Part shown: one piece after another, positions 24,527 through 41,433 of the stretch
How positions within the stretch are numbered: position 1 is the stretch's first letter
Layout of the letters: each line of letters opens with the position of its first letter
Source of the DNA: a virus
Taxonomy: Duplodnaviria; Caudoviricetes
Direction: 5' to 3' (one strand)
Length of the DNA stretch: 53,773 bases
Virus record (IMG/VR): IMGVR_UViG_3300020596_000028
Location: 1 to 53,773 of that record
Notes under the pieces: model-generated
Told to the model about the DNA's origin: nothing
Seen by the model: the letters and a program-made list of their open reading frames with translations, nothing else
Database searches by the model: none
Program-made: the position numbers and the translations under genes

Positions 24527-27500
24527 TTAAGCCCATCGTTGGAGCCAGTATTTAAACTGTGCATTGAATCCCGTCGAAGTGCTCGAATAAGTAACCACCA
24601 CATTCCCACCTGAGATCGATGCATCAAACGTGATGCCTAAATCTATCAATTGATCCGCCTTAAAGAAGGCTACCGAACAGTTCACATTCACGCCGTCGTT
24701 CACGAGATTCATCACCCCTTGTTCACGCTTCCCATCTCGCACTAAGGAGAAGTGAATGATGATATGAGGGTACTGAGTTGCGTTTAAAACTAAGAGTGAA
24801 ACATCGGTTGAGTTGTCGATCAGCACAAAGGCGCTAGAAAGTCCCTTGAATTCAAGACCATTCAACGTCAAAACTTTTGAAACTGAATCCCAAGTGAACG
24901 AAGAATCTGTAGATAAAAGATCACTGGAATTAAATTGAATTTCGCCGTTCGATCCAGCTGCCTGAAGTGATCCACTCGATCCGGTTGAGTAGCTGGGGAT
25001 TCCGCCAGGACCTCCTGCTGCATCACTCCATCGAGAAACGAAATACTTCATCGTTCCTGAAGTCCCTGTGGACTCAGATTCGTACTCAAGAACTAAGTCA
25101 TCTCCGTCTAAGTACGCATCGAAAGTAACTTGAATGTCCGTGATCACTGCACCGGCACGAACTAAAGTCACATCTGATCCGTTAGTTGAGATCAGGAGTT
25201 GCATGATTTCTTTCGCAGTACCTCGCAGTACAGAAAGATTGACAATCATGTTTTCACTGCCTGAAGAAGTCACTCGGAACACTTCGCCGGTTGAGTTGTC
25301 CGTGATGTCGCAGGTTTTTAGGGAACTCATTTCCCAGTAATCGCCTACGTTAAAGTATCTCACCGTATCGTTGATTTTAAATTCAGTTCCATCAAACACG
25401 GCAAGCTGGCCTGCGAATGCAATTCCTTTTTCTATGCGAACCGAATCCCCAATCCCGGGATCGGTTCCGTCTGGATAGTCAGCGACCTCAGTCCAGATAA
25501 TACTTGAGCCTACGCCACTAGATTCATAGATGCGGTTATTGAACGCAAATAAAACTCGGTCTTCGTTCGCCACTGCAACGCCATCAAACGTCGCAGCTGA
25601 ACCTGTCGGAATCACGGTTGCAAAGGGATCGTAAAAGGTGACTTGAATCGTGCCACCGTCGCCGCCGCCTTCACCAATTCGAGCTGCCTTATTATTTCTG
25701 ACTAACGTGTTGTCAAAAAAGATCAGTGAATCGCCGATACGAGTTGCAATTCGAAACGCATTCACCGTGCTAGGAACGAGTGAAGCCACGACTGGAATTA
25801 AGTTCACGTTGGCTTGCTGATTGAGTAAAACGTAAATACTATCGCCATCGGCAACTGGACCGATGGGAGAATTTGCAGCCGTTACCGTATTCACGATGCC
25901 GGTGTCGTTGAAACGAATCTTGATGTCCGTCGTGAACGAAAGACTTGTAGCTTGCCAGAACACTTTTTTATCGTCCACAGTGGCAACCGTGATGCGTCCA
26001 TCAGCAATTAAATAATTGATGTACTGCTGAACGTTCGCAACCGGAGAGCCTGAAAGGTTCGTATCGGCATTTAAATCATCCAGTGAAAGAATGCCGCCCA
26101 CTTCAGAGTTGCCTCTTAAGTACGCACCACTCAAGGCCACCAAACGATCCAGGAGAAGCTTGCCTGATCCTTCAAAAAAGTTATCTGCATCTGTCAACTC
26201 TTCAACGTTCAGTCCGTAGTGAAGAGCGCCGATGCCTGAATTTAAATAGCGCCGAGAGGTTGGGCAGCTTTGAGGTTCAGTCGAGAGTCCGACAATGGAC
26301 ACCGTGACTAAATCCGTCACCGCACTCACCGCAACTAACGCATCGTATAAGTCTTGAGCCGTGCTGAGACCGGATTGGAAACCCACTTTGATATGCCGTC
26401 CGGTAACAGTAACGATTTCTGATCCCGGAGCTCCGACTGAATCCTGGCCGCCTGTGAGAAACGTTTGGGCATACGGAGCACTTTGAGGAGCTGAACCTGT
26501 GCCGGTGATCGTGGTGTTAATTAAAGCCGCTGCTCCCACGTGAGCATCTAAAGCCGCTTTCACTTGAGTGGCAGTTGAGACTCCGCCTTCTAGCGTTACG
26601 CTAATGGCATTTCCTACAACGCTCACCACTTCGTTTCCAGCGTCGCCGATAGCTTCAGCTCCACCAGACAAGGTCACAGGCCCTGCTGGAGCCGTCTGGG
26701 TGCCTGTGCCGGCATCTAACGAGTAGGCATTGATGAGAGCTGAAGCTCCAACGTGCGCATTGATGGCAGTCTTAATTTGGTTGGCCGTTGTGACGCCGCT
26801 TTGTATCTGAACGCTGATCGCTGTGCCGATCACACTCACCACAGGAGTTGAGGTCGGAGCGCCGGTCGTGAACGCCACCGTGATGCCGTTTCCAGCAATC
26901 CCAATCGTATCGGCAATGAACCCTAAGTCTTGAAGTGTCGCTGAAGCGTATACGCCTGGAGTCCAATCCAGGTATTGCAAACTAATTAAGTTGCCTGCTA
27001 CGCCAGCCGTATCCGCTTGGAACGTGAGGTTTTGAATCAGGGATGAAGCTTTAATAGGAACAGCCGTGTCTTCGTACTGAACCGAAATTGTGTTGCCGTC
27101 TTCTTCAGTCAGCACGCTCACAAACTCGAGCTCTTGAACGGTGAGCCGAGCTAGACGAGCAGTTGAAGTGAACCGAAAATTATGATCTCCTGCGACCGTT
27201 CCCGCAACGCCTGCTCCGAAGTTTTTCTGCGGCTGTTCGTCGTAAGAGTCAATGTTCGTTTGATTAACATCCGTGCCTTGAGCGACTTCAAATTCAAACG
27301 TATCACCGATCTCAAAAGCCGTGGGGCCTTGATTGAGGGTGATAAATATTTTTTGGTCTTCGTCTATGTACTGTTGACCGACAATCGCAACCCCAATCGG
27401 TCCATCTAAAGCTCCGATGACTTGGAAGGTTGTAAAGGGTGCAACTGAGACACAGATCACCGTATAGAGTTGATTGATCGTGAAGTGGGTGAGTCGATTG

Positions 27501-27586
27501 ACCGTGAGAGTTCCATCGCCAACCGCTCCACTGAGAAGCACGGGAGCACTTAAGACGTATGGATCTTTAAAAACAGATTGGCTCAT
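24527..27586 (-). CDS. Virion structural/fibre protein (1019 aa) with three nested insertion domains
   Basis: Nested repeat domain at 26234..27160; duplicated C-terminal beta domain; fibre motif AAGSNGEIQFN. Confidence 0.75.
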   Translation of the reverse strand: MSQSVFKDPYVLSAPVLLSGAVGDGTLTVNRLTHFTINQLYTVICVSVAPFTTFQVIGALDGPIGVAIVGQQYIDEDQKIFITLNQGPTAFEIGDTFEFEVAQGTDVNQTNIDSYDEQPQKNFGAGVAGTVAGDHNFRFTSTARLARLTVQELEFVSVLTEEDGNTISVQYEDTAVPIKASSLIQNLTFQADTAGVAGNLISLQYLDWTPGVYASATLQDLGFIADTIGIAGNGITVAFTTGAPTSTPVVSVIGTAISVQIQSGVTTANQIKTAINAHVGASALINAYSLDAGTGTQTAPAGPVTLSGGAEAIGDAGNEVVSVVGNAISVTLEGGVSTATQVKAALDAHVGAAALINTTITGTGSAPQSAPYAQTFLTGGQDSVGAPGSEIVTVTGRHIKVGFQSGLSTAQDLYDALVAVSAVTDLVTVSIVGLSTEPQSCPTSRRYLNSGIGALHYGLNVEELTDADNFFEGSGKLLLDRLVALSGAYLRGNSEVGGILSLDDLNADTNLSGSPVANVQQYINYLIADGRITVATVDDKKVFWQATSLSFTTDIKIRFNDTGIVNTVTAANSPIGPVADGDSIYVLLNQQANVNLIPVVASLVPSTVNAFRIATRIGDSLIFFDNTLVRNNKAARIGEGGGDGGTIQVTFYDPFATVIPTGSAATFDGVAVANEDRVLFAFNNRIYESSGVGSSIIWTEVADYPDGTDPGIGDSVRIEKGIAFAGQLAVFDGTEFKINDTVRYFNVGDYWEMSSLKTCDITDNSTGEVFRVTSSGSENMIVNLSVLRGTAKEIMQLLISTNGSDVTLVRAGAVITDIQVTFDAYLDGDDLVLEYESESTGTSGTMKYFVSRWSDAAGGPGGIPSYSTGSSGSLQAAGSNGEIQFNSSDLLSTDSSFTWDSVSKVLTLNGLEFKGLSSAFVLIDNSTDVSLLVLNATQYPHIIIHFSLVRDGKREQGVMNLVNDGVNVNCSVAFFKADQLIDLGITFDASISGGNVVVTYSSTSTGFNAQFKYWLQRWA

Positions 27587-27624
27587 AGTTTAGTTCTCTC
27601 AGCTCTCTATGTGTTTTTACTTCG

Positions 27625-28440
27625 TTAGAACATCTCTGTGATGCTTAAGCTCATAGTGACGTAACGATTGAGGGTGAACTGTTCATCTGGAACGTCATCG
27701 AACTGACCCCAGAGACTACAAAATGATGGATCATAACGGTCAATAATTACTAAGAACGGTCTCGAAGATCCCACATGATCAAACATCTCTCGAAGTGCCA
27801 CGAAGTTTTCAACTCCATCCGCTTCAGCCACAGACGTTCTTAACTTCTGGAACTTCGCTTTCAGGGTTCTCACTTTTACTTTTTCAGTCGCAACTCGAAA
27901 GAAGCCTTCCGTCTTCACCAGCTCAGCCATGTCTTTATTGGCGATCACAAAGTCATCAGTGATGTCTTCGTTGGCAGTTAAGGTGACAGCTCGGCCTCCT
28001 ACTATTCTACCAATCTGAACGTAACCACACGGATTAGCTGTGTCTAAAATTCTCAATCGATAATGCGAATACGTGCTTCCAAACGTTTGCGTAAGAACCA
28101 TGTTTCCCTTCGACCAAGGAATCGTGAGACTCACCGGAGGAGCTAGCCAGTTGTCTGAAATATTTGCTTGAATTTTCACGACCGCAGTCGGTGAAAAATT
28201 GTGTCCTAAGATCGCAAACGTATCAATGTTTGAAGCTTGATCGGCTTCAATCACAATGTCCTGAGAAGCTAAAACGTTTGCACTTCTCCATACATGCCGA
28301 ATGGATTCAGTGGTGAGGTTGGATTTATCAAAGTCTCCGTCAGCAGTTGAAGTGACTGATAAAATCTTAGAGCCAGGCATAAGGTAATCACGATTGCCAA
28401 GATCGAAGTAATGGAGAAAACTAATTCCTTCAGCACTCAT
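27625..28440 (-). CDS. Distal tail-like protein
   Basis: Immediately downstream of the TMP; AILGHNF...YRLRILD..NP.GYVQIGRI pattern. Confidence 0.65.
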   Translation of the reverse strand: MSAEGISFLHYFDLGNRDYLMPGSKILSVTSTADGDFDKSNLTTESIRHVWRSANVLASQDIVIEADQASNIDTFAILGHNFSPTAVVKIQANISDNWLAPPVSLTIPWSKGNMVLTQTFGSTYSHYRLRILDTANPCGYVQIGRIVGGRAVTLTANEDITDDFVIANKDMAELVKTEGFFRVATEKVKVRTLKAKFQKLRTSVAEADGVENFVALREMFDHVGSSRPFLVIIDRYDPSFCSLWGQFDDVPDEQFTLNRYVTMSLSITEMF

Positions 28441-31400
28441 CCGTTCACCACGCCTCTCTGATTCACAACTGCTTCACCGCGTTCACTGGCTTCACGAATT
28501 GAATTAATCACGAGATCTTGAAGGTCACGCTTGGCACTTTCGCTCATTTCATTTCCAACGTTGAACGTGTTGCTGAAGTTTTGTTCAGCCATCCCGCCGC
28601 CTTGATTAATTTTCTTAGCCGCGTTTCGTAAATCTTTATTTGCTTCAGGTTGAAGAACTGCTTCTCCCCCGTTCAAAATAAATGATCGACCCGACATGCT
28701 TTGTGGCACTTCGTCTAAGCCTTCATGGGCTTGACCGCCAAGCTTCTGGTTTCTGATGTTGTTTACTTGCATCATCCCTGCGGCAGCAATCGCAGCAGCG
28801 GCAGCCGTAGCGAGAGCAGGACCGACGATTGGGATGCTCGACAACGCGGCAAAGGCTCCCGTAGCAGCCATGAAAGTATTCACGGAAGCTTGAGCAATCG
28901 CTGCCCCTTTTCCGATATTAAACATGGTTTCATTTTTAGATTGCATGAGAGAAGCAGCAGCCGTTAAGCCTTGGTTCATCGCCTGATACTGGGACGACTG
29001 TTGAATGCCGACCAACATCCCCATGAACTGTCCATGCTTCTCTTGTTGAAGCCGGATATTCGCAAGCGTTTCACCCCAAGAGTCCCGCAGCTTCTGTTGA
29101 CGAGTCACCTCGGCTTGAAGCTGAGTCTCACGAATCTGATTCATGTTAGCTTGATGATTTTGTTCCGCTTGCTCAATTGCAATCTTTCGTTCGCCTTCAG
29201 TGAGATCCTGATTCATTCGGATCTCAGCTTGGCTCGCTTCAAATTCCATTTGGCTTGCAGCTAACAATTCACGCGTCGCCATTTCATCGTTCATCAGGAG
29301 CTGAGCTTTTTCTTGATGAATCGCTAACTCTTCAGCGTTCCTAGCTTGCAGTTCTTGAAGACGAGAAGCGGACATCGCTCGCTCATAATCCTGGCGATTC
29401 ATTTCTCCCGTTTGCATTGCAAGCGTGAGTTGCTGTTGACGGGCTTGTTCTTGAGCAACTTTAACATCAGCTCCGCCTGAAGCTTCTGATGCTCCACCTA
29501 AACCTTGAGTCATCTGAGCTCTGGCTTGAGCGAGTGCGATTTGTTTTTCAGTTTCAGAGCTCACCGCAAGTCGCATCTGAGCATCGAGATGTTCTTTATA
29601 AGAAGCCATCTCAAGATCGCGTGCAGCAAGACGCGCTTGAGTCATTACTTCAACACCGTGACGGTCAATGTTTTGTTCTTCGATCATGCGCTGAGTAGCC
29701 ATCTCGACATGATGACTTCTCACTTCTTCAGCGAGAGCAATGCGTTTCGTTTTGATCTCATCAGCGACAGTGAACGTTTTATTTCGCTCACGAGAGATCG
29801 CAAGATCAACTTCTTTCATGCGAGCTTCACGTACTTCCATTTCGGATTTAATTTTTAAACCCTTCAATGCAAGTTGAGCTTTCGTTTCTTCTTCTTTCGC
29901 TTTTTCTAGAAGTTGTTTTTGAGCGTCATCCAAAGGAGCAATCTGAGTTGTGAGCTTGATGATGACTTCTTTTGAACGAGACTGAAGATCTTTAAGTGAG
30001 CCTTCAAATTGTTTTTTATTCTCTTCCCAGTCCATCAAAGCAAGTTGAGGAGAGACATCTTTCATTTTATCAATTGCAGATTTCGCAGCTTCTGAAGCCT
30101 TAATGAAGCCTGTTTCAAGCTTAATCATTGCTTGATTGCTAGCTGAAGCTTGAGATTCTAAACCTTTCAACGCATCGTTTTGTTCGCCTACAGCAACCGC
30201 TGTCTCTTCAGCTCTACGTGCAACTTCAACTTGAGCTTTTCCATTTGCCCAAAGTTGGTCAGAAAATCCTTCCATGCTCTGACGAATTCCTGCCACCGAT
30301 TTCGCCATATCGGAATCGACGAGAGAAACGATCGCTTCAATTCCTTTGAGAAGAAGTCTGATTTGAAAAGTGACGACATCAAATGCAGCTGCTAAACCTT
30401 GTTTCGCAAAACCAGCGCACTTATCGAAGTTGTCAATCAAGTACCCAATGCCAAGCGTGAGTCCAGCAACGGCAGCAATCGCAATGCCGACAGGCGATAA
30501 AGCCATTGTACTATTGAGAGCGATCTGAGCAATTTTCCATGCAACCGTTGCAACCCGTGCAGCGTTGGTGACGGCGATGTATCCACCGACTACTCCGACC
30601 GCGATGCCTAATGCCATGCCATAGTTTTTTAAACTATCAGAATTTTCATTTAACCACTGAGCTCCACTTGCGATCGATTCAGCCATGCTCGTGAACATGA
30701 CCGCTGATTTAGAAAGAGCAGAAATGACGGCAGGATTTTTCGTAATTAAAAATCCAATTTGCTTGAGCACGTCTCCCCAAGCTTCTTTTGATTTCTTTAA
30801 AGCGCCTTCATAAGTCTGAGAAGAGTTAGCAGCAAAGTCCCTGTACTTAGCCGCGATCAAATCAATCGCAGCCCCGCTTCTTAACTGTTCTTGAGTGAGT
30901 CCTTTTAGGGCCGTAACCTGAACGCCTAATTTACCAGTCGTTCCAGTCATCGTAATCGCGAGCTGTTTCATGGCAGCATTCGCATCGATGTTCAGAGCAG
31001 CGCCTAAGTTGACGGCAGCTTCAGTTGCTTTCGCAGCTTGTTCGGCACTCATTCCTAAGTTCATGCCGTAAGAAGCGAGGTCTTTTACGGCATCATCTGA
31101 GATCCCGATTTGCGCTTGCATCGCGCCTGAGAGTTTTTGGATCGCTTGATAAGCCTTCTCCGTGTAGTTCCCAGTCTGAACCATGGAGGCAGCAAGCTTG
31201 CGGTCTGAGGCTTCAGCTCCCGAAGCCGCATCGATCGTGGCACTGATGGCAGCGTTGACGCGACCAAACACAGCACCCATCACTTCACCAGCGCCTTTGA
31301 GAGCTAAGAAGGCAGTTGAAGCAGCAGTAACGGATTGGCCAAGACCCGTTTCACCTAAAGCGGCAGCGACCTTTTTTATGGCCGAACTGATATTGTCTTC

Positions 31401-31442
31401 CGCGGTGAGTTTGAGTTTTAACTCTCGATCATTATTACTCAC
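28437..31442 (-). CDS. Tape measure protein
   Basis: 1001 aa, Ala-rich and helical; N-terminal LKLTAEDNIS; hydrophobic patches; follows the tail chaperones. Confidence 0.92.
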   Translation of the reverse strand: MSNNDRELKLKLTAEDNISSAIKKVAAALGETGLGQSVTAASTAFLALKGAGEVMGAVFGRVNAAISATIDAASGAEASDRKLAASMVQTGNYTEKAYQAIQKLSGAMQAQIGISDDAVKDLASYGMNLGMSAEQAAKATEAAVNLGAALNIDANAAMKQLAITMTGTTGKLGVQVTALKGLTQEQLRSGAAIDLIAAKYRDFAANSSQTYEGALKKSKEAWGDVLKQIGFLITKNPAVISALSKSAVMFTSMAESIASGAQWLNENSDSLKNYGMALGIAVGVVGGYIAVTNAARVATVAWKIAQIALNSTMALSPVGIAIAAVAGLTLGIGYLIDNFDKCAGFAKQGLAAAFDVVTFQIRLLLKGIEAIVSLVDSDMAKSVAGIRQSMEGFSDQLWANGKAQVEVARRAEETAVAVGEQNDALKGLESQASASNQAMIKLETGFIKASEAAKSAIDKMKDVSPQLALMDWEENKKQFEGSLKDLQSRSKEVIIKLTTQIAPLDDAQKQLLEKAKEEETKAQLALKGLKIKSEMEVREARMKEVDLAISRERNKTFTVADEIKTKRIALAEEVRSHHVEMATQRMIEEQNIDRHGVEVMTQARLAARDLEMASYKEHLDAQMRLAVSSETEKQIALAQARAQMTQGLGGASEASGGADVKVAQEQARQQQLTLAMQTGEMNRQDYERAMSASRLQELQARNAEELAIHQEKAQLLMNDEMATRELLAASQMEFEASQAEIRMNQDLTEGERKIAIEQAEQNHQANMNQIRETQLQAEVTRQQKLRDSWGETLANIRLQQEKHGQFMGMLVGIQQSSQYQAMNQGLTAAASLMQSKNETMFNIGKGAAIAQASVNTFMAATGAFAALSSIPIVGPALATAAAAAIAAAGMMQVNNIRNQKLGGQAHEGLDEVPQSMSGRSFILNGGEAVLQPEANKDLRNAAKKINQGGGMAEQNFSNTFNVGNEMSESAKRDLQDLVINSIREASERGEAVVNQRGVVNG

Positions 31443-31822
31443 TTCGTTCTCCCACCCGCGTTTCTTTTATTTTGAATCTCGGCGAACTGTTTCTTTTCAA
31501 CGTCTTGTGCCTTCTTGGCCTCCCTAGAAATATACTCCGAAGAGAGGTCATCAAGATATTTGAACAGCTCAATAGTGTAAGCAGTTTGGTCAACCATACT
31601 GCCCGGATGAGGATAGATTTTTGAGTCCCGGCAATCAAAATAAAGATCGACCAAGAACTCGTCCTGCCGGCTCTGCATGTAAAGTCCCTTAGGACATTCG
31701 TCATACAGATGACCGGCAAGCAGGTTCTTAGCAGGCTTAAACAGATTGCAGCAGTTTCGAAGGCGTTGCAGACCTCGGTCGCACTTGGTGCAATTAAACG
31801 ATGGACCCTTCTTGCGATCCAT
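31439..31822 (-). CDS. Tail assembly chaperone, frameshift (gpT-like) portion; Cys-rich
   Basis: In the -1 frame of the upstream ORF and open back to the slippery site; HPGSMVDQ motif. Confidence 0.75.
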   Translation of the reverse strand: MDRKKGPSFNCTKCDRGLQRLRNCCNLFKPAKNLLAGHLYDECPKGLYMQSRQDEFLVDLYFDCRDSKIYPHPGSMVDQTAYTIELFKYLDDLSSEYISREAKKAQDVEKKQFAEIQNKRNAGGRTK

Positions 31823-32393: not shown

Positions 32394-33953
32394 TTACCGG
32401 ATGGTCAGCGTGATCTCGGTATCGAGTGCGTTCTTGCTTGTCGCCATACAAGTTCCTTCAAGAGCCAAACTCACGTAGCTATCGCCAGGCTGTTCAATCT
32501 CAGGAATATTGAACTCCACTTTAGGCATTTTCCACTCAAAGGTTCTTCCAACGCCGCTCGTATAGGACGGAGCTGGAATGTCTTGAGGCTCAAGAGTGAG
32601 GGTGACGTCTTCAGCAATGAACTGTTTGCTTCTCATGAAATGAACGAAGTTATCTTTATTCAAGAGCACTTCACATTTTAAAGTCACAGTTCGGCGCTTG
32701 TCTGGAAGGTAACCCTTGTTCTTTGAAGTGCCGTACAAGAAGTCCTTCTTCGTGAAGTTGTTGGCAATCGCAACTTCAGCACTAATGGCTTCTGCTTGTC
32801 CACCGCTTGCAAAGCTCACTGAACCTTTCAGTCCAAGGAGAGCGTTGCTGGAATCAATCGGATCATAACTCACCGGAGCATGACCGATCACAATGTCGTT
32901 CACGTCAGCAGCTGCAAATGCAACTGAGACCCGAACGATATCCGCGTTGACTCCGGTGCCGATTGCGACGACTTTTTTAGCCGAGCTCTTCACCGTGTTG
33001 CCATCGTCTTTATCGATCACATCGATATAGCCGTCAGCTTCAAACATCTGGCCTTGGCCCGATCCAACTTTAGCTTCCGTATCCAGTAATCCGCCAGCTA
33101 AGTTCACTGCTGCTGCCACAACCTGAGCATTACCGCCCACGCCTGACACGGCAACACTGACCAAAGCAGAAGCGCCTACGTGAGCGTCAACTGCGGTTTT
33201 GATTTGAGAAGCAGTGGTGACTGCCGTTTCAATCTGAACGGAGATCGCAGTTCCTGTGAGGGAAACGACTTCAGCACCGGCCGTTGCTCCACCTGTGTAG
33301 GTAATCGTGATCAAGTTCCCGTTTGAACCTACAGCGTCAGCTGTATAGGTCAGGTCTTGAACGATCTTACTTGCCGCTACAGATGCACTTGTGAGGGCTT
33401 GAGCAAGAACGGATTGTCCAGCAAAGAAGGCGTCTTGTCCGAAGCCTTCCATCGAGACCATCGACTTGCCATCACCTGGCAATTGGAAGGTCATGGAATC
33501 CGCTACGCAACCAATGGCAAGCTTCGTGAAGTGCGAGGTTTCTTCCAGCATCCGGAAGCTGTTGTTATTTAAGCTCGTGAGCTTATAAACAATCTCAGCC
33601 GGATCAGTGAGATCCACGCTTCCGAACACGCTTAAGAACATCGCGTGCAAAGGGGGTAGCGTTGGGTTTCCAGATCCGTCTGGAGTGCCTGGAATCACAT
33701 AGCCTTCGTAACTGATTTCAACTTCTTTTTTCCCTGAGTGACGAGTCACCACAGATCGGCCAGATCGTGCTTCACTGTCAGACCGTGGAATATCGAACTT
33801 GATATTTCCGTTAATATGCTCAACCGCGTCAGATCCAATCGGAAGTAATCCGCTGGTTGCGTCTTCGCCGTATCCGCCTGATTCGATCGAAAGCCAAAAC
33901 TTCTGATCCAGGCCTAGGGCTTCATGACTTCTGCTTAAAAGATTTCTGCTCAT
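32394..33953 (-). CDS. Major tail tube protein with inserted domains
   Basis: Upstream of the chaperones; tube-like N- and C-termini (IESGGYG, GCVADSMTF, FEWKMPKVEF, EITLTIR); followed by a terminator. Confidence 0.85.
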   Translation of the reverse strand: MSRNLLSRSHEALGLDQKFWLSIESGGYGEDATSGLLPIGSDAVEHINGNIKFDIPRSDSEARSGRSVVTRHSGKKEVEISYEGYVIPGTPDGSGNPTLPPLHAMFLSVFGSVDLTDPAEIVYKLTSLNNNSFRMLEETSHFTKLAIGCVADSMTFQLPGDGKSMVSMEGFGQDAFFAGQSVLAQALTSASVAASKIVQDLTYTADAVGSNGNLITITYTGGATAGAEVVSLTGTAISVQIETAVTTASQIKTAVDAHVGASALVSVAVSGVGGNAQVVAAAVNLAGGLLDTEAKVGSGQGQMFEADGYIDVIDKDDGNTVKSSAKKVVAIGTGVNADIVRVSVAFAAADVNDIVIGHAPVSYDPIDSSNALLGLKGSVSFASGGQAEAISAEVAIANNFTKKDFLYGTSKNKGYLPDKRRTVTLKCEVLLNKDNFVHFMRSKQFIAEDVTLTLEPQDIPAPSYTSGVGRTFEWKMPKVEFNIPEIEQPGDSYVSLALEGTCMATSKNALDTEITLTIR

Positions 33954-33970: not shown

Positions 33971-34585
33971 TTAGGCTGCTGGGTTAGCAGATCCATTGAG
34001 AATGATTTTGTACTTCTTCGTTCTCAAGCGTTTAATTTCAATAATGTCTGCTTTGTCGAAAGTGGAAGTATTGGATCCACCTAAAAGAGCTGTGCTCACT
34101 TGGGTAGTCAATACACTCACGCCTGAACCCGCAACGGAAACCAAAGCTGAAGATGGAGCTGAAGCAATGATTGCAGCTTTCACTGTGTTCGCAGTGGAAG
34201 TAATTGCAATTCCGTCGTGAGCTAAGTTGACCGTAATTGCGTTTCCAACTACGCCGACTGAAAGAGGAGCAGAAACACCTGGATCAACATAAGTGATCGT
34301 GATTGAGTTTCCGCCAGTTCCTAGAGCGACTGCTGTATAAGTCAGCCCTTGAATCACCTTGCTAGCTGCGATCACGCCAGCTGCACTTGCGATGATGAGA
34401 CAACCCGTACTGAGAGTTTCATCAATGGTGAATGAGGAAAGCTCGTTACCTCGGTAAAGAGTTTTTCCTTTGAGAATTTGAAGTCGACTTGCTTTAACAG
34501 CTGAGGCGAGACGGATCTTTTCTAGGAGCTTCGTCTTTTTAGCAGCAGTCAAGCCAGTCCCATATTTTGATTTGAGTAATGGCAT
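33971..34585 (-). CDS. Virion-associated protein carrying the shared insertion domain
   Basis: Small basic host protein interrupted by the ~100-aa domain (34076..34375). Confidence 0.7.
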   Translation of the reverse strand: MPLLKSKYGTGLTAAKKTKLLEKIRLASAVKASRLQILKGKTLYRGNELSSFTIDETLSTGCLIIASAAGVIAASKVIQGLTYTAVALGTGGNSITITYVDPGVSAPLSVGVVGNAITVNLAHDGIAITSTANTVKAAIIASAPSSALVSVAGSGVSVLTTQVSTALLGGSNTSTFDKADIIEIKRLRTKKYKIILNGSANPAA

Positions 34586-34653
34586 CGTATGTTCCTTCCT
34601 AACCGGAATAAGGTTAATCTGGGTGGTTAAGGTCTACGATGTATCTATACGTC

Positions 34654-35160
34654 TTACTTGGCGTTGCGTGCGTTCCGCGTGTACTCAATATCAATGTCCA
34701 TGCTGAAAAGCCTCACTCCACTATTGTCCAGCTCACTGAAGAGTTGATTATCGGTCGGAATGGAGAGCACTTCCATTTTGTTAATCTGACCAAACAGCGT
34801 GTTGTTATCGTCTAAGCACTGTTCCACATCCGCTAGGAACTCCTCAAACTCAATGAATTCCATCTCGCGGCAAGTCCCAAAGATCTCTAATCGCCACACG
34901 TATTCGCGCACAGTGCCGGCATGGCGTTTAATATTATTGACCGAATCAATAATGTACATCACCGGAGTTTCAGCTTTCGCTTTATCCCGCCAGCCCTTCA
35001 CGTTGAAGGTCACGTCGGCCATGTTCTGAGTATAACCTCGGTCCTTGGTGACGGTCTTTAAGAGCATCTGAAGGGCAACCAGGATACGAGCTCGCTTAGA
35101 TTTTAAGGGCTCAATGATGGCCTGAATTTCTTGAACTTCAATGGTCGTTAACTGTGCCAT
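34654..35160 (-). CDS. Tail terminator-like protein
   Basis: Position before the tube gene; SKRARIL...GY...P...E.FLADVEQCL pattern. Confidence 0.65.
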   Translation of the reverse strand: MAQLTTIEVQEIQAIIEPLKSKRARILVALQMLLKTVTKDRGYTQNMADVTFNVKGWRDKAKAETPVMYIIDSVNNIKRHAGTVREYVWRLEIFGTCREMEFIEFEEFLADVEQCLDDNNTLFGQINKMEVLSIPTDNQLFSELDNSGVRLFSMDIDIEYTRNARNAK

Positions 35161-35166
35161 AACGGA

Positions 35167-35754
35167 TTACTCCAGTCCAAATGTTTCATCTAAAAACAGT
35201 CCAAACTTCTCAGCTATTTCTTCCCGCTTGGCTTCTAGAGCAGGACGAATATAAGGCCGTGCTGGAACCTTGACGCTTTTTTTCATCAGGAACAGAGGCA
35301 CCATTTCGCCTCCTTCGGCTCGCATCGCTAGGATGAGATTACCGGCTCGACTCTTAATAAAGAAGGATCGGCCAGCAAAGTCCATCGGTTTCGCTCTAGC
35401 GATCCCGTCCGGGCCTTTCACTTCGTCTAAAGGAATGGCTAGGTACTTAGCGTTCTTCGGAGTGATCTCGCCGCCGAACTCATGGATCGAAGCATACGGC
35501 ACGCCTTCAGGTCCGACCTCCCCTTTGATCACGCCATTTTCTTCACTCACTCTAGAGCCTTGAGGAATGGAGTTTAGAAGCATTCCTGAACCCACGCGGA
35601 AGTTCTTTTGAACGTTTGCCATCATCTCTGCTTGCAGTGCCGTGATCGCACGCCACATGATTTTCTTCAGTCCACGGCGATAGTCTAAGCCTTCTTTTTC
35701 TAAAAGCTCAGCTAACCTTTTCGCCTCTTCACTGCCGTGGATATTTAATTTCAT
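35167..35754 (-). CDS. Tail completion/neck protein (HK97 gp10-like)
   Basis: SGMLLNSI...VG...PYASIHEFGG...VPARPYIRPAL. Confidence 0.85.
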   Translation of the reverse strand: MKLNIHGSEEAKRLAELLEKEGLDYRRGLKKIMWRAITALQAEMMANVQKNFRVGSGMLLNSIPQGSRVSEENGVIKGEVGPEGVPYASIHEFGGEITPKNAKYLAIPLDEVKGPDGIARAKPMDFAGRSFFIKSRAGNLILAMRAEGGEMVPLFLMKKSVKVPARPYIRPALEAKREEIAEKFGLFLDETFGLE

Positions 35755-36773
35755 ATCTGGTTCTGGTTCCGTTGTGGAACTGGACGAGTGCCAAGAGACA
35801 CGTCTTGATAAGGCTCAAGCATTTCGTAGATCTGAGAAGGGATTCCATCGACTAGCTTCGTATAGCTCTCACCTTTGATTCCCTTAGAGCCTACGCCTAG
35901 GTCACGGTTCTCGCGTTGCATGTACCAGAACTCCATCAACTGCTTGCCTGCGAGAGCAATATCTTGAGGCAAGTCATCGACCGTTTCACCCCAGCCTGCT
36001 TTGTACTTGAGCTTGATCGCACCCAAAATGGAACCACTAAAGATCGTGCCGAGAACAAACTTCTCGTTATCATCCCGTAGTACAATGTCGTTGCCAACAA
36101 TTCTAAGCTCGGTATCGCTCGTTTTCTGTCTTCGATCTGAGCCTCCGCGTTTGAAATAATTTGCGGTCGGCATGATTGACGTATCCCCAAACCCACGATT
36201 GTAATCGATTCGGATTTCAACGATCTCAGTCACAGGCCATTGATGAGGCTTGATGACGTTTGAGTTACTGCCGTCATGCTCTTCAGTGAACGTGCGATTC
36301 AAAACTGGCGTCGATAGGATGCTCTCCACTCGATCACTAGCGGCTTGTCTGAGCTCATCGATAATGTCTTTTACGCCTTGATCATAGCGCGTGTCGTTCG
36401 TTCCAGCGGATAGTGAACCGACTGCTGCAATCACCTGAGCATCGCCTGAGTTACCCACCAAGCTCACGTCAACCAAGTCTTGAGTGCTGGCTAAAACTTT
36501 CGTCATCACTTGGAGAGCAGTACTCACCGTGTCTTCAATTTGAATGGTGATCAAGTTTCCCACCTGAGTGACGACTTCAGCCCCAGCCGTAGCGCCTCCG
36601 GTGTACTCAATTTGAATCAAAGTGCTGTCAGGTCCAGGTAGTTTTGAAGTGTATTTTAAGTCCTGGATAGTTAAGAAACCTTTAGTTCCGCCTAACAAAC
36701 CCACAACTTCTTTTTTCACCTTCAGCCAAAATGCAGCCTTCTCCAGCGTGATGAAACAATTATCTTTGACCAT
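35751..36773 (-). CDS. Head-tail connector (gp6-like) with the shared insertion domain
   Basis: ITLEKAAFWLKV...IIDELRQAASDRVE...YKAGWG...LPQDIALA...LMEFWY..RE...LEPY. Confidence 0.85.
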   Translation of the reverse strand: MVKDNCFITLEKAAFWLKVKKEVVGLLGGTKGFLTIQDLKYTSKLPGPDSTLIQIEYTGGATAGAEVVTQVGNLITIQIEDTVSTALQVMTKVLASTQDLVDVSLVGNSGDAQVIAAVGSLSAGTNDTRYDQGVKDIIDELRQAASDRVESILSTPVLNRTFTEEHDGSNSNVIKPHQWPVTEIVEIRIDYNRGFGDTSIMPTANYFKRGGSDRRQKTSDTELRIVGNDIVLRDDNEKFVLGTIFSGSILGAIKLKYKAGWGETVDDLPQDIALAGKQLMEFWYMQRENRDLGVGSKGIKGESYTKLVDGIPSQIYEMLEPYQDVSLGTRPVPQRNQNQI

Positions 36774-37572
36774 ACGTCACCCATTTTTCTTCGCCGTGAG
36801 CAATGCCAGCGGCTATTTTTTTAGGATCAAAATCTAACGTGCTCATTAGGATGCGTCCTGGAGCGAAAACTTTTAGGTTAATTTTCTTCTTACCCTTTTC
36901 ATTATTATACCGTGTGCACTTGCGAACATCGTTCACGAACACCTCGTGCTCCATCACATCAAGGGCTCGCATCCCCGCTGAAAGGAAATGAGGCCAAGAA
37001 GTCTTCCACTTGTTAAGCGGGTTTTGAACCATCGGGTTGCACAGGATGATAATGATTTCATCGGCTCCGTCTTTGATCGCTTGAGCGAGCGGTGCCTGTT
37101 CTCTCACGCCACCGTCGACATACTTCCCGAGCGGCATCTCCATAAAAAAAGGAATGCACGCTGAGGCTTCCGTCATCAGAGCAAATGCATCGTGACTCAT
37201 CTGACGGCGATAATAATAATTCAACGAGCCATCGACGAGGTTAGTGACGACGACACAAGCGTCTCCTACATACTCAAGTGCTTCCACTTTGAGTCCGGCT
37301 TGAAGCTTCTCACGTAAAGGCTTCATCGAGTACACGCTGTCAGACCAAAGCATATTCAACTTTAAAGAAAGAATGTCTGAACGGCCTTGAATGGAGCGCC
37401 ACATTTTTTCAGTGCCTTCCATTCCCATGAACGAAAGTCCAAAGGCGTTCAAAGCTCCGACTGAAGTTCCATACACGCAATCAGGCATCCACTCTTTCAG
37501 GAGGTGCTTCATCACACCGACCTGGAAACAACCTTTCGCTCCACCACCGCTCAGGACCAATGCTCGTTTCAT
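36760..37572 (-). CDS. Patatin-like phospholipase
   Basis: Oxyanion loop LSGGGAKG, nucleophile GTSVG and catalytic DGG are all intact. Confidence 0.95.
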   Translation of the reverse strand: MKRALVLSGGGAKGCFQVGVMKHLLKEWMPDCVYGTSVGALNAFGLSFMGMEGTEKMWRSIQGRSDILSLKLNMLWSDSVYSMKPLREKLQAGLKVEALEYVGDACVVVTNLVDGSLNYYYRRQMSHDAFALMTEASACIPFFMEMPLGKYVDGGVREQAPLAQAIKDGADEIIIILCNPMVQNPLNKWKTSWPHFLSAGMRALDVMEHEVFVNDVRKCTRYNNEKGKKKINLKVFAPGRILMSTLDFDPKKIAAGIAHGEEKWVTYGQR

Positions 37573-37578
37573 CGTTCG

Positions 37579-38223
37579 TTATCCGATCTCGTAGGCAAAG
37601 AGGTTAAACTGTACATGTGCTGCTTCAGTTGCGTTGGCATGTGAGTGGTATTGAATGCGCATGAAGAGTCCTGCCATTATCGGATTACTCACATCTACAT
37701 CAGCAATCTCATTGCCGATGCCTTTATAAATCTGTAAATGAGGAACGTACTCGACAAGAAAAGTTGGGTCTTCAGGAGTTCCTCCGTAGCCAAGGACATT
37801 ATTTTTATCGATCAAAAACACTTTTACAAAATCTCCAGGACAAGAATTGATCGAAAAAATATTACCACCTCGAAGAGCAAGTTGCTGATCAAATTCAAAA
37901 TCATAATCAGTAATCGCATTCATCGCAGCTACAAAATAACCGCCTCGCATTCGAAGTGAATAATCGGAAGCCGAGTTTCCTACAGTCTGAAGGACTCTCT
38001 TTGGGATGTCGTTTTTTAGAAAATCAATTTGATTATTGAGTCCATTGAGATCATTGTTCCCGTCGTTGACTACGAGTTCACCGGCTGAAATCGCAAGTAA
38101 GATCGAGTCATCACTCGCCCATCTTGCTTCATCCGTACTTGGAATTGTGTAATAAGAACCAGATTCAATGTCTTGACCTAGATAGTTTGCGACTTCAATC
38201 AGTGTATTTTTAACTCGTTTCAT
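37579..38223 (-). CDS. Putative head-decoration protein (shared N-terminal domain)
   Basis: N-terminus KNT...G..I..G.YY.I...W.....VVNDG shared with the next two ORFs. Confidence 0.65.
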   Translation of the reverse strand: MKRVKNTLIEVANYLGQDIESGSYYTIPSTDEARWASDDSILLAISAGELVVNDGNNDLNGLNNQIDFLKNDIPKRVLQTVGNSASDYSLRMRGGYFVAAMNAITDYDFEFDQQLALRGGNIFSINSCPGDFVKVFLIDKNNVLGYGGTPEDPTFLVEYVPHLQIYKGIGNEIADVDVSNPIMAGLFMRIQYHSHANATEAAHVQFNLFAYEIG

Positions 38224-38942
38224 TAGCCCTCCACCTGAGCGTTTCCAGTTCCTAAAAGGTAAATTCTAAATGCGATTCCGACTTGTGTCGGCAACGTGAG
38301 AATATTTGTTCCTTTGTCTCTCATAAACACGCGGAGTGTATCGCCGACCTCAAAGTTTAAAGGAAGAAGATAGTTTGTCTTATTTGCTTTTCTCTTATTA
38401 CGAATCGCCCATGTGAATATTTTCATCGCAGGTCCGTTTCCGTTTTTGTAACATTCAACGTCCATATCGATATCAATGTTTGTACTCATGGTGATTGCAA
38501 GTGCTCGACAACGAACAGGGATCACCATCGGAATTAAGTTTGAAGAGAGAGCATTCGATCCGTTTCCAAGCCATTTATTTGACGTGACTCCATCTGAAAT
38601 GAAATCAATTACTCCCATTTTTCCAACTGTTGAGTTTAAAATAATCTCTTCTATGAATGAATCCATGTTTCTAGAAACAACGTCAGGGTTAGAAGACTTG
38701 TACCAAACTTGGTCAGCAAGAGTATCGCATTGAAGAAACTTTAAACCGTCTGCGACGTTCGTAATGTCATCAGTGCCGTCATTCATCACAGCAATCTGAT
38801 TATTGACGTGAGCAGATACGATCGGATTATTCGACCAGATCTGGTATTCATTCGGAGGAATAACATAATACTCTCCAGGCATGACCAGAGTTCCGCACCA
38901 AGTCTGATTCACTAGAGTTGCATTCTTAATTTTTTTAATCAT
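38223..38942 (-). CDS. Putative head-decoration/fibre protein (paralog)
   Basis: Shares its N-domain with 37579 and 38939, and its C-domain with 38939 and 39667. Confidence 0.65.
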   Translation of the reverse strand: MIKKIKNATLVNQTWCGTLVMPGEYYVIPPNEYQIWSNNPIVSAHVNNQIAVMNDGTDDITNVADGLKFLQCDTLADQVWYKSSNPDVVSRNMDSFIEEIILNSTVGKMGVIDFISDGVTSNKWLGNGSNALSSNLIPMVIPVRCRALAITMSTNIDIDMDVECYKNGNGPAMKIFTWAIRNKRKANKTNYLLPLNFEVGDTLRVFMRDKGTNILTLPTQVGIAFRIYLLGTGNAQVEG

Positions 38943-39664
38943 GTGACAGATCCTCCTACTCCTGCGGTTTCAGAGGTCACGTAGAAAAACGCTGTGATCA
39001 TAGACTTACTAGGATTAATCAAAGAAGTGCGGCGACCAAAGATTCCAAACTGATCCCCTGGAGAAAACTGAAGAGCAGGAGTCGTATTGACTAAATTCAT
39101 ATCAAATAAGTAGGCGTGTTTCTTGAGTGACACAGGCCAGGTGTAAACTAAATTTCCAGATTCTTTTCCGTTCTTATAAAGTTCAACGTTGATTGAAGAA
39201 CTTGATGCGTCGTTCACAAATGTGAGACCAATAAGTTTAGCTGCAAACGGAAGAATGAGCGGAGCGACATCCATGGTGAGCGCGTTCTCATGCCGCCGCA
39301 TCCACTGATTAGAGAGTGAAGAGGTTCGCATGCTCTCCACCATGATAATTCGTCCTGACACCATGACTGAAACCGCTTCATTAATTGCGGATCGAATATC
39401 GTTGGAAAGAAAGTTGGTTCCCGTTTTTAAAAATCGCCCCTCACTCGCATCGAGCTTCAGGACTAAAGCTGCGTCAGCGGCTGAAAGATTGGTGGCTCCA
39501 TCATTCACTACGGCACTTAGACCTGTCAGATCCGTGAGAAATAAAGTGTCTGACAAGAGTCTCAGTCGATCGACTTCTTGAATGGCGTACTGAGAAGCGG
39601 CTTCAATTTGAATCCCCCCCCACACCTTAACTGATCCTGTCGTATTTTTTAAAATGAGTGACAT
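38939..39664 (-). CDS. Putative head-decoration/fibre protein (paralog)
   Basis: Same modular sharing; SNDIRSAINEA coiled motif. Confidence 0.65.
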   Translation of the reverse strand: MSLILKNTTGSVKVWGGIQIEAASQYAIQEVDRLRLLSDTLFLTDLTGLSAVVNDGATNLSAADAALVLKLDASEGRFLKTGTNFLSNDIRSAINEAVSVMVSGRIIMVESMRTSSLSNQWMRRHENALTMDVAPLILPFAAKLIGLTFVNDASSSSINVELYKNGKESGNLVYTWPVSLKKHAYLFDMNLVNTTPALQFSPGDQFGIFGRRTSLINPSKSMITAFFYVTSETAGVGGSVT

Positions 39665-39666
39665 GG

Positions 39667-40122
39667 TTAAACCGTCCTAATGCAGATTGCTAGTGTCGGT
39701 CGATTGATCGTTCCTGAAGTGACTTTAAGCGAAATCTCATCTAAATCAATATAAGCAATCGAAAGCCCTTTCACTCTCGCTTTGCGATTGCCAGAAAGAG
39801 AAATCGTTGTCGATTCAACCCCATTATTAAACAACGTGACTGTTCCAGTTGAGTTCGTCGAAGCACTCAGTGAAAGAGAAATGAGTTCTGAAGGCTCAGG
39901 AATAATGAGCGGGTTGAGGTTAGAAGGATTGTTTGTGAAGAATTCAAGCCATCTCCCCACCCCTGCCGATCCGTCAAACCCGCACATTACCGCACCTCGC
40001 GAAACTAGCTTCGCGAGTGCTAACGCTTCTTCAATTGCTGCTTGAACTTCAGTCGAGGTGAACCCGTTGGCCCGATCAGGCGGAGATTTAAACTCAATGC
40101 TGTCCGCGTTTAGTCTTCCCAT
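39667..40122 (-). CDS. Putative head fibre protein (151 aa)
   Basis: GFTSTEVQAAIEEA motif; C-domain shared with the downstream paralogs. Confidence 0.65.
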   Translation of the reverse strand: MGRLNADSIEFKSPPDRANGFTSTEVQAAIEEALALAKLVSRGAVMCGFDGSAGVGRWLEFFTNNPSNLNPLIIPEPSELISLSLSASTNSTGTVTLFNNGVESTTISLSGNRKARVKGLSIAYIDLDEISLKVTSGTINRPTLAICIRTV

Positions 40123-40155
40123 GGATTCACCTCAACCCTAAGTTTCAAAAATCGA

Positions 40156-41433
40156 TTACATGTCTACGTTATCAGTTGCTTTTCTGTAATCGATATCGAG
40201 CTCTTCATCCTGCTGAGGAGCTTTATTCATTCGGTTGCGTTCGTTGGTTTTGATGTGGAAACTGACCCACTTGTATCCAGTCGAAGCAATGTTATTGAGG
40301 TACACTTGCTCAAGCTCAGCATAGTCTCCTGTGCCGTCATCGAGTCCACCTGTCAAAGCAGAAGGACCAAACGTTGCGACTACTCCTGATCCGTTTCCGC
40401 CGTATTTGGCTTGGACAATCCTTTGAGCTGTAGAATCAGAGTTAATAGCTCCAGCGATATCAGCAGCAGTAGCAAGACCACCATTGTTATTGACCTTTAC
40501 CAAATACCCGGCCGATGAACTTCCGGTGATGAGCACAGTGAGGCCTGCCCCGGTTTGAACTTGGATGTCGGTCTCATTGCCGAGTAGTCCTAAGATCATC
40601 GAAGTGAGAATCAACTGAGCATTGCCAGCTCCTTGAGTAAGGGAGGCACGAGTTCCTGCGGTACCGCGACGTTTTCTCACCCCATCAATCAACACCTTGC
40701 TCGAGTTCTGAACGAACAGCAATTGACTCATGAAAGCCAAGTGAGATCCGTTTGCAGCGGCAAGCTGTTCGCCTTCAACGGGACGATCAATCTCGTCAAT
40801 GCGAGACTCAGTTCGCTCCACCATTTGCTGAAGCGTGATGCTTGTGGCTTCTAGGAATGGATTAGTTGCGCTTGAGGTATCAATCAGAGCGTTGATGACT
40901 ACTGTGGAACGATTGTTCACAGCATCCGCATTCGGGTTCACGGACTCAATGACTTGAGCCGAAGACACAATGCCTTCATCAGCTAGAACGTCTACCGTAT
41001 CGCCTGCTCGAAAAGAGCGAACGTTAGCGACGTAGAAGGTCGTCTTTCCAGCCGAAGGCGTGTTCATCGCAGAAGTGATGATCGTTTCTTTTCGGGTGAA
41101 CTTGACGTTGCCCTTGAGTACTCGGCGATAGAGTCGGTCCATGGCAGATTGACCATCGTCAATTTGCTGGACTTGGATCATCGGAGTTCCGACAGCTCCA
41201 GTTGTATCTACGGCGCTTGAAAGCACTACAGCGACGTTGTCATCAATCGCAGAGATGGTCAGGTTGTCGGCCAAAACGGAAAGGATATTTCCGTTTGCAT
41301 CGACATCCACCACATCGACGATATCGCCGAATTCAAAGTAGCCAGTAAAGTCAACTGCCTGCCTGTCATCATTGATCGGGCTGGTACAGGTAACCCGCGC
41401 CTCGAATAAAGTCCTAATCAGATTGCCTTGCAT
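40156..41433 (-). CDS. Virion structural protein (425 aa) with the shared insertion domain
   Basis: C-domain homologous to 41472..41924 (DY.E...R.N.APQQ.E.L..Y.K), interrupted at 40345..40656. Confidence 0.7.
   Translation of the reverse strand: MQGNLIRTLFEARVTCTSPINDDRQAVDFTGYFEFGDIVDVVDVDANGNILSVLADNLTISAIDDNVAVVLSSAVDTTGAVGTPMIQVQQIDDGQSAMDRLYRRVLKGNVKFTRKETIITSAMNTPSAGKTTFYVANVRSFRAGDTVDVLADEGIVSSAQVIESVNPNADAVNNRSTVVINALIDTSSATNPFLEATSITLQQMVERTESRIDEIDRPVEGEQLAAANGSHLAFMSQLLFVQNSSKVLIDGVRKRRGTAGTRASLTQGAGNAQLILTSMILGLLGNETDIQVQTGAGLTVLITGSSSAGYLVKVNNNGGLATAADIAGAINSDSTAQRIVQAKYGGNGSGVVATFGPSALTGGLDDGTGDYAELEQVYLNNIASTGYKWVSFHIKTNERNRMNKAPQQDEELDIDYRKATDNVDM

Follow-up and report, generated by a model that had tools for sequence, protein, structure and literature searches.

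Accessory decoration of phage particles, for instance by Ig-like domains or carbohydrate-binding modules, is known to shape adsorption and surface retention, and Fraser et al. reportedly described Ig-like domains in structural proteins of phages in 2006. Among the closest known systems to the module that we describe here is the exposed insertion domain of contractile sheath proteins (PF17481), as found in DSY3957 (3HXL, residues 88-182), Lin1278 (3LML, residues 90-187) and phiCD508 (9GB1, residues 91-206). Lactococcal 936-group siphophages are decorated by carbohydrate-binding modules (PMC6669499). These modules and Ig-like domains resemble the present case in that one accessory brick recurs in a number of virion proteins (neck, major tail protein and distal tail protein), is variably present from one relative to the next and presumably helps in host binding. 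They differ from our module in fold and family and are mostly terminal extensions or insertions of CBM or Ig type; host binding has been shown experimentally for two of them, and the abstract of the lactococcal study does not mention self-nesting.

The window analysed here is the whole 53,773-nucleotide stretch of the Caudoviricetes record IMGVR_UViG_3300020596_000028. We found a module of ~100 residues in five of its particle proteins, namely the tail tube protein, the head-tail adaptor, a small basic protein, a 425-aa head-region protein and the tail-tip protein, all encoded on the minus strand. A sequence-only reading of the window had assigned one and the same module to five coordinate ranges, and all of these lie in frame on the minus strand and, when translated, yield the peptides it gave. 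For a profile comparison of the copies, which that reading had proposed, the seed was limited to the copies in the tube, the adaptor and the small protein, and the target consisted of every six-frame ORF of the window with 40 aa or more (549 in all). The seed copies scored E values of 1e-38 to 1e-45, and five stretches of the 1019-aa tail-tip protein, which was not part of the seed, were retrieved with i-E values of 0.021, 7e-4, 3e-18, 2.5e-11 and 4e-6; the comparison thus bore out the kinship of the copies, the three strongest non-seed units ranging from 3e-18 to 4e-6 while the top unrelated ORF reached 0.21. A translated search of the record with the tube copy hit seven places, at E values from 1e-51 (self) to 8e-4. 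The identical peptide that had been noticed in the tube and connector copies despite changes in the DNA is indeed there: 12 residues are the same in the tube protein (aa 219) and the adaptor (aa 57), 7 of the 36 underlying nucleotides differ, and the two modules share 54% DNA identity. The module belongs to a family of 3222 representative clusters (profile search, E≤1e-3; clusters at 50% identity) that none of the libraries used names. A tree of the modules is poorly resolved, with 16 of 26 inner branches left open, and does not show which way or how often the module passed from one host protein to another.

Insert-free relatives exist for the probable tail tube protein (519 aa, 32394..33953), which carries one module and is encoded directly upstream of two chaperone genes and the gene of the tape measure. 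The protein itself has no Pfam match at E≤0.1, and its orthologs with 47-65% identity pass the 27-bit cut-off of PF18906 (Phage_tube_2; P0216, 39.8 bits; P0219, 41.1 bits; P0159, 32.7 bits; P0213, 29.2 bits), an assignment with which the gene order agrees. The tube module (aa 186-292, 33078..33398; HMM E 9e-44) is present in 64 of 111 tube orthologs, 62 of which measure 513-536 aa. It is absent from another 45, which are 402-424 aa long and align with a single clean gap, and the remaining two contain a divergent insert. On a tree of the tube core, calculated from 109 rows after removal of the insert columns, presence and absence of the module are interleaved; 11 presence/absence changes are needed and at least eight of them are forced by well-supported branches.

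A comparable polymorphism was observed in two neighbouring genes. The head-tail adaptor (340 aa, 35751..36773) matches phrog_442 (head-tail adaptor) over residues 65-327 with an E value of 1.6e-14, and Pfam HCP only weakly (E 0.056). Its module (aa 29-124, 36402..36689; HMM E 5e-45) occurs in eight of 13 syntenic phages, and the five adaptors without it (L012, L013, L016, L018 and L019; 234-271 aa) have kept the N-terminal segment of ~22 aa. The small basic protein (204 aa, 33971..34585), encoded between the tail terminator and the tube, consists of a ~100-aa core and one module (aa 71-170, 34076..34375; HMM E 1e-38) and has no match in Pfam or PHROG. Two of its orthologs (L009 and L010) are 100 aa long, lack the module and match only residues 3-70 and 169-203, leaving a clean gap in its place, and three further ones (L008, L014 and L015) carry one module like the protein of the window. 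In the ortholog from L011, a single module is split by another inserted segment.

The fourth host, the 425-aa protein (40156..41433), is encoded in the head-to-neck gene block and has no match in Pfam or PHROG. Its module (aa 273-366, 40336..40617) is divergent: it was missed by the first profile, reached E 6e-4 after one iteration and was matched by profile-profile comparison with hhalign at E 1.9e-10 (probability 96.9%). We found 155 homologs of this protein, and the 120 that were listed are all 407-450 aa long; a B unit, the C-terminal part of the module, is detectable in 116 of these 120, and no insert-free ortholog was seen among them. The sequence-only reading had taken the adjacent 150-aa protein (41472..41924, minus strand) for a paralog displaying the empty site, a claim that did not survive closer comparison. 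Similarity between the two proteins is restricted to a C-terminal motif of ~40 aa, comprising the last 38-41 residues (BLASTP E 9e-6; hhalign E 2.7e-4), and none was detectable upstream of the module, so that the 150-aa protein is unusable as an internal control.

These distributions bear on the question of whether the segment might instead be ancestral and integral to each host protein, with the short forms being degenerate or mis-called and no mobile insertion having taken place. The near-constant presence of the module in the listed 425-aa homologs, and its presence in 24 of 24 homologs of the tail-tip protein, among which no insert-free ortholog was seen, would fit such a history, and for these two hosts we infer insertion from architecture only. 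However, the gaps in the 45 tube proteins, the five adaptors and the two small proteins are clean, with conserved flanks and intact frames, the interleaving on the tube-core tree requires repeated change, and members of the module family also reside in unrelated hosts, namely a sheath, a flagellin cluster, a hook protein and a Baseplate_J protein. We therefore regard an ancestral origin as extremely unlikely. The domain had previously been read as promiscuous and loop-inserted, in agreement with the orthologs without insert that we found for three of the five host proteins (tube, adaptor and small protein).

The arrangement in the tail-tip protein (1019 aa, 24527..27586) is more complex. The protein, whose gene follows that of the distal tail protein, has no family match in Pfam or PHROG, and 36 orthologs have its first 520-640 residues in common. 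Three copies of the module had been claimed for it, and three sets of units are indeed present, but they form a nest that is three deep and are not whole modules in tandem. Profile searches resolved N-terminal A units of ~30 aa and C-terminal B units of ~60-65 aa in the order A-A-A-B-B-B: A1 (aa 146-176, 27059..27151) and A2 (aa 178-207, 26966..27055) are followed by A3 and B1, the only contiguous pair, which make up the complete innermost module (aa 212-309, 26660..26953), and then by B2 (aa 314-380, 26447..26647) and B3 (aa 385-451, 26234..26434). This order makes the modules nested, with A2 and B2 as the probable halves of the middle module and A1 and B3 as those of the outermost one; the pairing draws on a predicted 545-residue model, in which A2 and B2 jointly align to one sheath domain, and on the alignment ranges. 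An alternative is that A-A-A and B-B-B are two tandem arrays, the three hairpins forming one sheet and the three B units independent small domains. The linear order by itself is compatible with this, and strings without such balance, for example AABBB, BABAB or A units alone, do exist (62 of 153 module-bearing representatives, against 91 of 153 with a balanced-bracket order), although many of them may be fragments or contain overlooked divergent units. On the other hand, every single-copy host has A and B directly next to each other and folded into one domain, and A2 and B2 align as one domain in the model. Moreover, exactly one A unit and one B unit are missing from the tail-tip protein of L013, each at a site of its own, and in the small protein of L011 the two units stand ~140 residues apart although they are adjacent in its orthologs. 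Taken together, these observations make two separate arrays unlikely. Consistent with nesting, AB, AABB and AAABBB were all seen among tail-tip homologs that were found via the N-terminal domain alone.

The AlphaFold2 model of the single module taken from the tube protein is confident (pLDDT 95.1, pTM 0.86) and comprises seven strands and three helices, two of them longer and one short. The only structural relatives of the module in the fold lists are exposed insertion domains of sheath proteins, and its fold is that of the domains of 3HXL and 3LML over the residues given above. The sequence-only reading had pointed to sheath outer domains, correctly so, and the structure check suggested there went its way in part: the model is confident and sheath domains come out on top, but in a Foldseek search of the PDB with the single module nothing was significant, the best rows being 3hxl (E 0.57) and 3lml (E 0.69). 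Likewise, the module profile had no match among the sequences of solved structures, where the best row was unrelated (E 0.51). The window copies lie wholly outside the Pfam model of the sheath domain, PF17481 (Phage_sheath_domII, cut-off 31.4 bits), which matched neither the five window proteins at E≤0.1 nor anything in the whole record at E≤10; sub-threshold matches were obtained for 14 of 55 and two of 54 module-bearing relatives (best E 1.9e-5).

It is also conceivable that the module belongs to a decoration family described before, be it an Ig-like one (Big_2, I-set or FN3), that of a carbohydrate-binding module or that of the flagellin IN motif, and that its likeness to sheath domains merely reflects a common beta-sandwich arrangement. 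The module contains a conserved 'AIN'-like helix, which brought the flagellin hook IN motif (PF07196) into consideration. However, PF07196 is listed for no window protein and does not appear in the tallies for 109 relatives, and the same holds for Ig-type Pfam families; the fold lists contain no Ig entry either, an absence that does not exclude a family. We consider membership in a described family very unlikely, in line with the earlier impression that the fold is not Ig-like, and favour the relationship to the sheath domain. This relationship gains weight from a metagenomic protein of the DUF3383/phrog_205 type, P0138, which is a bona fide tail sheath (phrog_205, E 5e-68; DUF3383, E 6e-39). 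It contains the same module family, nested as an A-A-B-B pair, scores E 4.8e-31 against the module profile and has 37% identity (E 5e-20) with the module region of the tube.

In P0138, being a genuine sheath, the module thus sits in its 'classical' host, unlike in the phage studied here, in which it is not an insertion within a sheath protein core and its hosts are tube, adaptor, small, head-region and tail-tip proteins. No sheath gene had been visible to the sequence-only reading, and none is detectable in the record (no match to PF04984 or PF17482), although a sheath gene elsewhere in the genome is formally possible, since the estimated completeness of the record is 64%. A further difference from the sheaths of one published study is that those nest different domains, whereas the tail tip nests one domain in itself. 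Outside virions, the module family occurs in bacterial filaments: a flagellin cluster (P0016/P0152, with Flagellin_C) has at least 12 module-family stretches, and another member lies in a hook protein that has the complete set of FlgE domains. DUF3383 is listed as one of the ten commonest domains of flagellin hypervariable regions (PMC5595980, Table 1).

Collectively, our data suggest that the module is probably an autonomously folding plug-in unit, related at a distance to the exposed insertion domain of sheaths as a branch of it, which has been inserted, and nested in itself, in proteins of a non-contractile phage. In this model, an alpha/beta unit of ~100 residues from a large, unannotated family would act as a cassette whose two ends enter and leave one host loop, which would permit gain and loss without disturbing the host fold. 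In this non-contractile lineage, its hosts are the tail tube, the head-tail adaptor, the tube-adjacent small protein, the head-region protein and the tail tip. The module's own A-B loop would in turn accept a further copy, giving rise to the nested A-A-A-B-B-B stalk of the tail tip. The modules may be solvent-exposed on the particle as accessory decoration. If the outer domains of sheaths and flagellins and the decorations that other siphophages carry (carbohydrate-binding or Ig-like) are a guide, they would most likely adhere weakly to host or environmental surfaces or, as the second likeliest role, stabilise the tail laterally. A bolder and rather unlikely proposal is that the module represents a horizontally mobile cassette for display on filament surfaces, common to phage tails (sheaths, tubes, necks and tips) and to flagellar filaments and hooks. 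Tube, neck, small-protein and tip copies would then jointly form an unbroken outer coat, in effect a pseudo-sheath of the non-contractile kind with units that dock on each other or on a common ligand, and the small protein, with its 100-aa core and its gene at the position of the myophage sheath gene, may be a minimal scaffold that solely adds copies to the tail surface.

Our findings add a large unnamed family to the accessory decoration domains of phage particles. They show that a domain of the sheath-outer type is not bound to sheaths and moves among tube, neck, tip, head and sheath proteins, being found in flagellin and hook proteins as well. They also point to an annotation gap, in that such insertions drop tube proteins below the Pfam threshold. 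Finally, the natural series of zero, one, two and three copies at one site and the repeated gains and losses in the tube family constitute a ready set of alleles for tests of function, and the self-nesting rule, insertion into the loop between A and B, is a simple design principle for protein stalks that run out and back.

The sequence-only reading had placed copies of one ~100-aa module in five virion proteins of this phage, the tube, a small protein, the head-tail adaptor, a 425-aa protein and the 1019-aa tail-tip protein, and its coordinates are in frame and translate to the peptides it reported. To recover copies by profile, we built a seed that was restricted to the copies of the tube, the small protein and the adaptor, and searched it against all 549 six-frame ORFs with a length of 40 aa or more. 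In the 1019-aa protein, this seed found five stretches (i-E values from 0.021 to 2.8e-18); the best unrelated ORF had an E value of 0.21. The 425-aa protein was reached after one profile iteration at E 6e-4 (next unrelated ORF, 0.71). When an alignment of 13 module copies was compared with one of 30 members of the 425-aa family, the two matched over residues 273-366 with a probability of 96.9% and an E value of 1.9e-10, and we therefore accept the 425-aa protein as a module host, its copy being real but divergent. On the other hand, the 150-aa protein that had been read as a paralog with an empty insertion site, and hence as an internal control, was rejected for this purpose, as its similarity to the 425-aa protein is confined to the last 38-41 residues. 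Within the module, we distinguish an N-terminal unit A (~30 aa) and a C-terminal unit B (~60-65 aa). At the A-to-B junction, the tube and adaptor copies share a 12-residue peptide that is identical despite synonymous changes, as had been seen from the DNA, with 7/36 nucleotides being different. As the tube and adaptor modules have, moreover, a DNA identity of only 54%, the shared peptide reflects selection at the protein level and not recent gene conversion.

In three hosts, the tube, the adaptor and the small protein, the module is an insertion, and it behaves as a discrete unit that is optional at a fixed loop. The proposal of a loop-inserting domain is borne out by insert-free orthologs of all three proteins. 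For the tube, we collected 111 orthologs, each with both core halves. The module was present in 64 of them (62 with a length of 513-536 aa and two truncated) and absent from 45 (402-424 aa), and the tube alignment shows it as one clean gap flanked by conserved sequence. The other two orthologs, P0219 and one further protein (538 and 545 aa), carry a module-length insert at the same site that was missed by the A and B profiles at E<=1e-3 and, by alignment, looks like a strongly diverged module. We also calculated an unrooted maximum-likelihood tree of the tube core from 109 rows, with the insert columns removed and two truncated rows dropped. On this tree, presence and absence of the module amount to 11 changes, at least 8 of which are forced by well-supported branches, compared with a mean of ~35 after shuffling. 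Because the tree is unrooted, gains and losses are indistinguishable, and recombination between alleles could contribute to the changes.

Similarly, the adaptor carries the module in eight of 13 syntenic phages (the window and 12 loci from related phages, L008-L019), and the five module-free adaptors (234-271 aa) retain the N-terminal ~22 residues, which run straight into the body of the protein. The small protein contains one module in the window, L008, L014 and L015. In L009 and L010 it is 100 aa long and matches residues 3-70 and 169-203 of the window protein, and in L011 (9329-10390, plus strand) it carries a split module, the A and B units, which are adjacent in its orthologs, lying ~140 residues apart. 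Combinations of modules vary by phage; for instance, the tube is a host and the adaptor is not in L013 and L016, and both proteins are module-free in L012, L018 and L019. Two further features of the small protein were noted. The ~140-residue segment of L011 resembles the variant module of the 425-aa type, below significance, and the 374-aa protein of L013 (3214-4335, plus strand) contains two other segments, family unassigned, at the same insertion site. A comparison of these extra segments with the 425-aa type did not show them to be copies of it: for L013, hhalign returned an E value of 0.0057 and a probability of 6%, and the canonical profile gave no match. For the 425-aa protein itself, no insert-free homolog was seen, the unit being detected in 116 of the 120 homologs listed, all of 407-450 aa.

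The module's own A|B loop also tolerates further insertion. The three whole copies previously counted in the tail-tip protein could not be upheld: the profile matches are instead ordered as three A units (aa 146-176, 178-207 and 212-243) followed by three B units (about aa 248-309, 314-380 and 385-451), and A3 and B1 form the only contiguous A/B pair. Our data support a truly nested array, A1(A2(A3B1)B2)B3, in which the strand pairing itself is inferred, and they do so through paired loss, variable depth and the split module of L011. Regarding paired loss, the tail-tip ortholog of L013 has the order A-A-B-B and, when compared with the window, is missing exactly one A and one B at two separate sites. 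Regarding depth, we searched for homologs using only the N-terminal 140 residues of the tail-tip protein as a query, which makes the search independent of the module. All 24 homologs contained the array and none was insert-free, with AAABBB found in 18, AAABB in two, and AB, AABB, AABBB and AAABABB in one each. Among 153 module-bearing representative proteins, 91 have units in a balanced-bracket order (AAABBB 28, AABB 22, ABABAB 21, ABAB 12, ABABABAB 4 and four others once each) and 62 do not; some of these 62 may be fragments or contain missed units.

A model of the single module, calculated for the tube copy from a 29-sequence alignment (pLDDT 95.1, pTM 0.86), predicts a fold of seven strands, two longer helices and one short helix. 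Foldseek with this model returned no match to the PDB at E<=0.001. Its top rows, which are non-significant, were the sheath proteins 3hxl and 3lml (TM 0.48-0.58, 20% identity), and further sheath entries among the structural matches were T4 gp18, phi-kp24, phiKZ, P1 and KP1. In the sheath proteins, the aligned part (residues ~88-206) corresponds to the exposed insertion domain modelled by Pfam PF17481 (Phage_sheath_domII). No window copy matched PF17481, which appeared below threshold in 14/55 and 2/54 module-bearing relatives, with a best E value of 1.9e-5. Furthermore, a true sheath protein is among the module-bearing representatives: P0138 (phrog_205, E 5e-68; DUF3383, E 6e-39) contains a nested pair of modules in the order A-A-B-B, with an identity of 37% to the tube module region. 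Based on the structural matches, the sub-threshold PF17481 matches and P0138, we conclude that the module does not represent a new fold but belongs to the sheath outer-domain family as a divergent branch, which agrees with the resemblance to outer sheath domains pointed out in the sequence-only reading. As far as these tests show, it is not Ig-like. A search of PDB sequences with the module profile found nothing, the best row being an unrelated fimbrial protein at E 0.51. Matches to FlgL and Wzc, obtained by Foldseek with a 545-residue model, were discarded as weak and as falling in the N-terminal domain and not in the module, and the flagellin IN motif was dropped because Pfam scans of window proteins and module-bearing relatives contained no match to this family. 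Sheath domains have been described as 'Russian doll' insertions, the outer domains of which are surface-exposed and make no contact with the tube (PMC6088184).

The structural gene layout of this phage is that of a non-contractile tail. As the sequence-only reading had remarked, no sheath gene is visible: the sheath core families PF04984 and PF17482 were not detectable across the linear IMG/VR record of 53,773 bases, which the window covers in full and the estimated completeness of which is 64%. The minus strand encodes all structural genes. They begin with a single 941-aa ORF (45469..48294, minus strand) that combines the portal (PF04860) with a Mu F-like domain at its end (PF04233, residues 785-906), followed by the prohead protease (44303..45352, minus strand) and the HK97-type major capsid protein (42847..44238, minus strand). 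A block of unnamed genes, among them those for the 150-aa and 425-aa proteins, comes next and precedes a patatin-like gene, the head-tail adaptor (phrog_442), a Neck1/tail completion protein, the tail terminator, the small module-bearing protein (204 aa) and the 519-aa tube protein. Two small ORFs at the chaperone position, the tape measure protein, a 271-aa distal tail protein, the tail-tip protein and a fibre-like protein complete the order. Except for the adaptor, Pfam and PHROGs assigned no family to the module-bearing window proteins. Two other genes of this region deserve mention. A patatin-like phospholipase of 270 aa (36760..37572, minus strand; PF01734, E 1.2e-20) is encoded within the head-neck structural block by a gene that overlaps the adaptor gene start and, among the 12 loci, has orthologs in L009 and L010 only. 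A 199-aa protein encoded just downstream of the capsid gene (41924..42523, minus strand) has only its first ~115 residues in common with orthologs of 278-444 aa in L008, L010-L013 and L015-L017 and is another head-region protein of variable length, possibly a modular one. Neither megablast with 20 kb of the window nor a search with the tube protein gave a match among 50,697 deposited phage genomes, and hence no cultured relative is available.

Beyond the syntenic phages, a profile built from nine window pieces and run against 1.84 billion representatives retrieved 3222 proteins at E<=1e-3, 1020 at E<=1e-10 and 140 at E<=1e-30, and 36 of the top 150 matches were tail-tip orthologs. Module carriers include one Baseplate_J protein, giant repeat proteins that contain as many as 25 stretches and a flagellin cluster (P0016, with 12 module stretches) whose member P0152 has Flagellin_C. 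A further carrier combines Flagellin_N with Flagellin_C, and another has the complete set of FlgE hook domains. Most carriers are without any Pfam family. BFVD yielded five matches at E<=1e-3, none of them informatively named, with three labelled 'Uncharacterized protein', one unnamed and one 'Fibronectin type III' only, and 28 of 30 neighbours in the ESM Atlas were unnamed clusters, with one DUF3383 cluster at a low score of 0.81. DUF3383 is listed among the domains tabulated for flagellin hypervariable regions (PMC5595980). A tree of modules from different hosts was intended to separate spread within genomes from inheritance by position. Host labels required 10 changes on it (minimum 3, shuffled mean 15.9), and with 16 of 26 inner branches open it is too poorly resolved to choose between the two.

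Decoration modules that occur promiscuously on phage particles are already known, as are nested sheath domains and the PF17481 fold. In the literature outside subscription journals, we found no report of a sheath-type domain on tubes, adaptors or tips of a sheath-less phage, of three-level self-nesting of this domain, or of the size of this family, which is unannotated, and its occurrence in flagellar proteins; likewise, the DUF3383 literature leaves the module undescribed and no papers on PF17481 were found. The window adds the 425-aa protein as a fifth host. The ends of the module are probably adjacent, and the module would project from the surface of its host protein. The tube would display one copy per subunit over the entire length of the tail, the adaptor copies would encircle the neck as a ring, and the tail-tip array would build a three-domain out-and-back stalk. 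Since close relatives do without it, the module is presumably accessory. Additional domains of sheaths are reported to be dispensable and possibly to serve adhesion or stability (PMC9230969), and in lactococcal siphophages, carbohydrate-binding modules are described that decorate proteins of the neck, the tail and the distal tail, with host-cell binding by two of these modules (PMC6669499). By analogy with the outer domains of sheaths and flagellins and with these lactococcal modules, weak adhesion would be the likeliest role of the module, a reading to which we give about an even chance, and lateral stabilisation of the tail may be considered the second likeliest.
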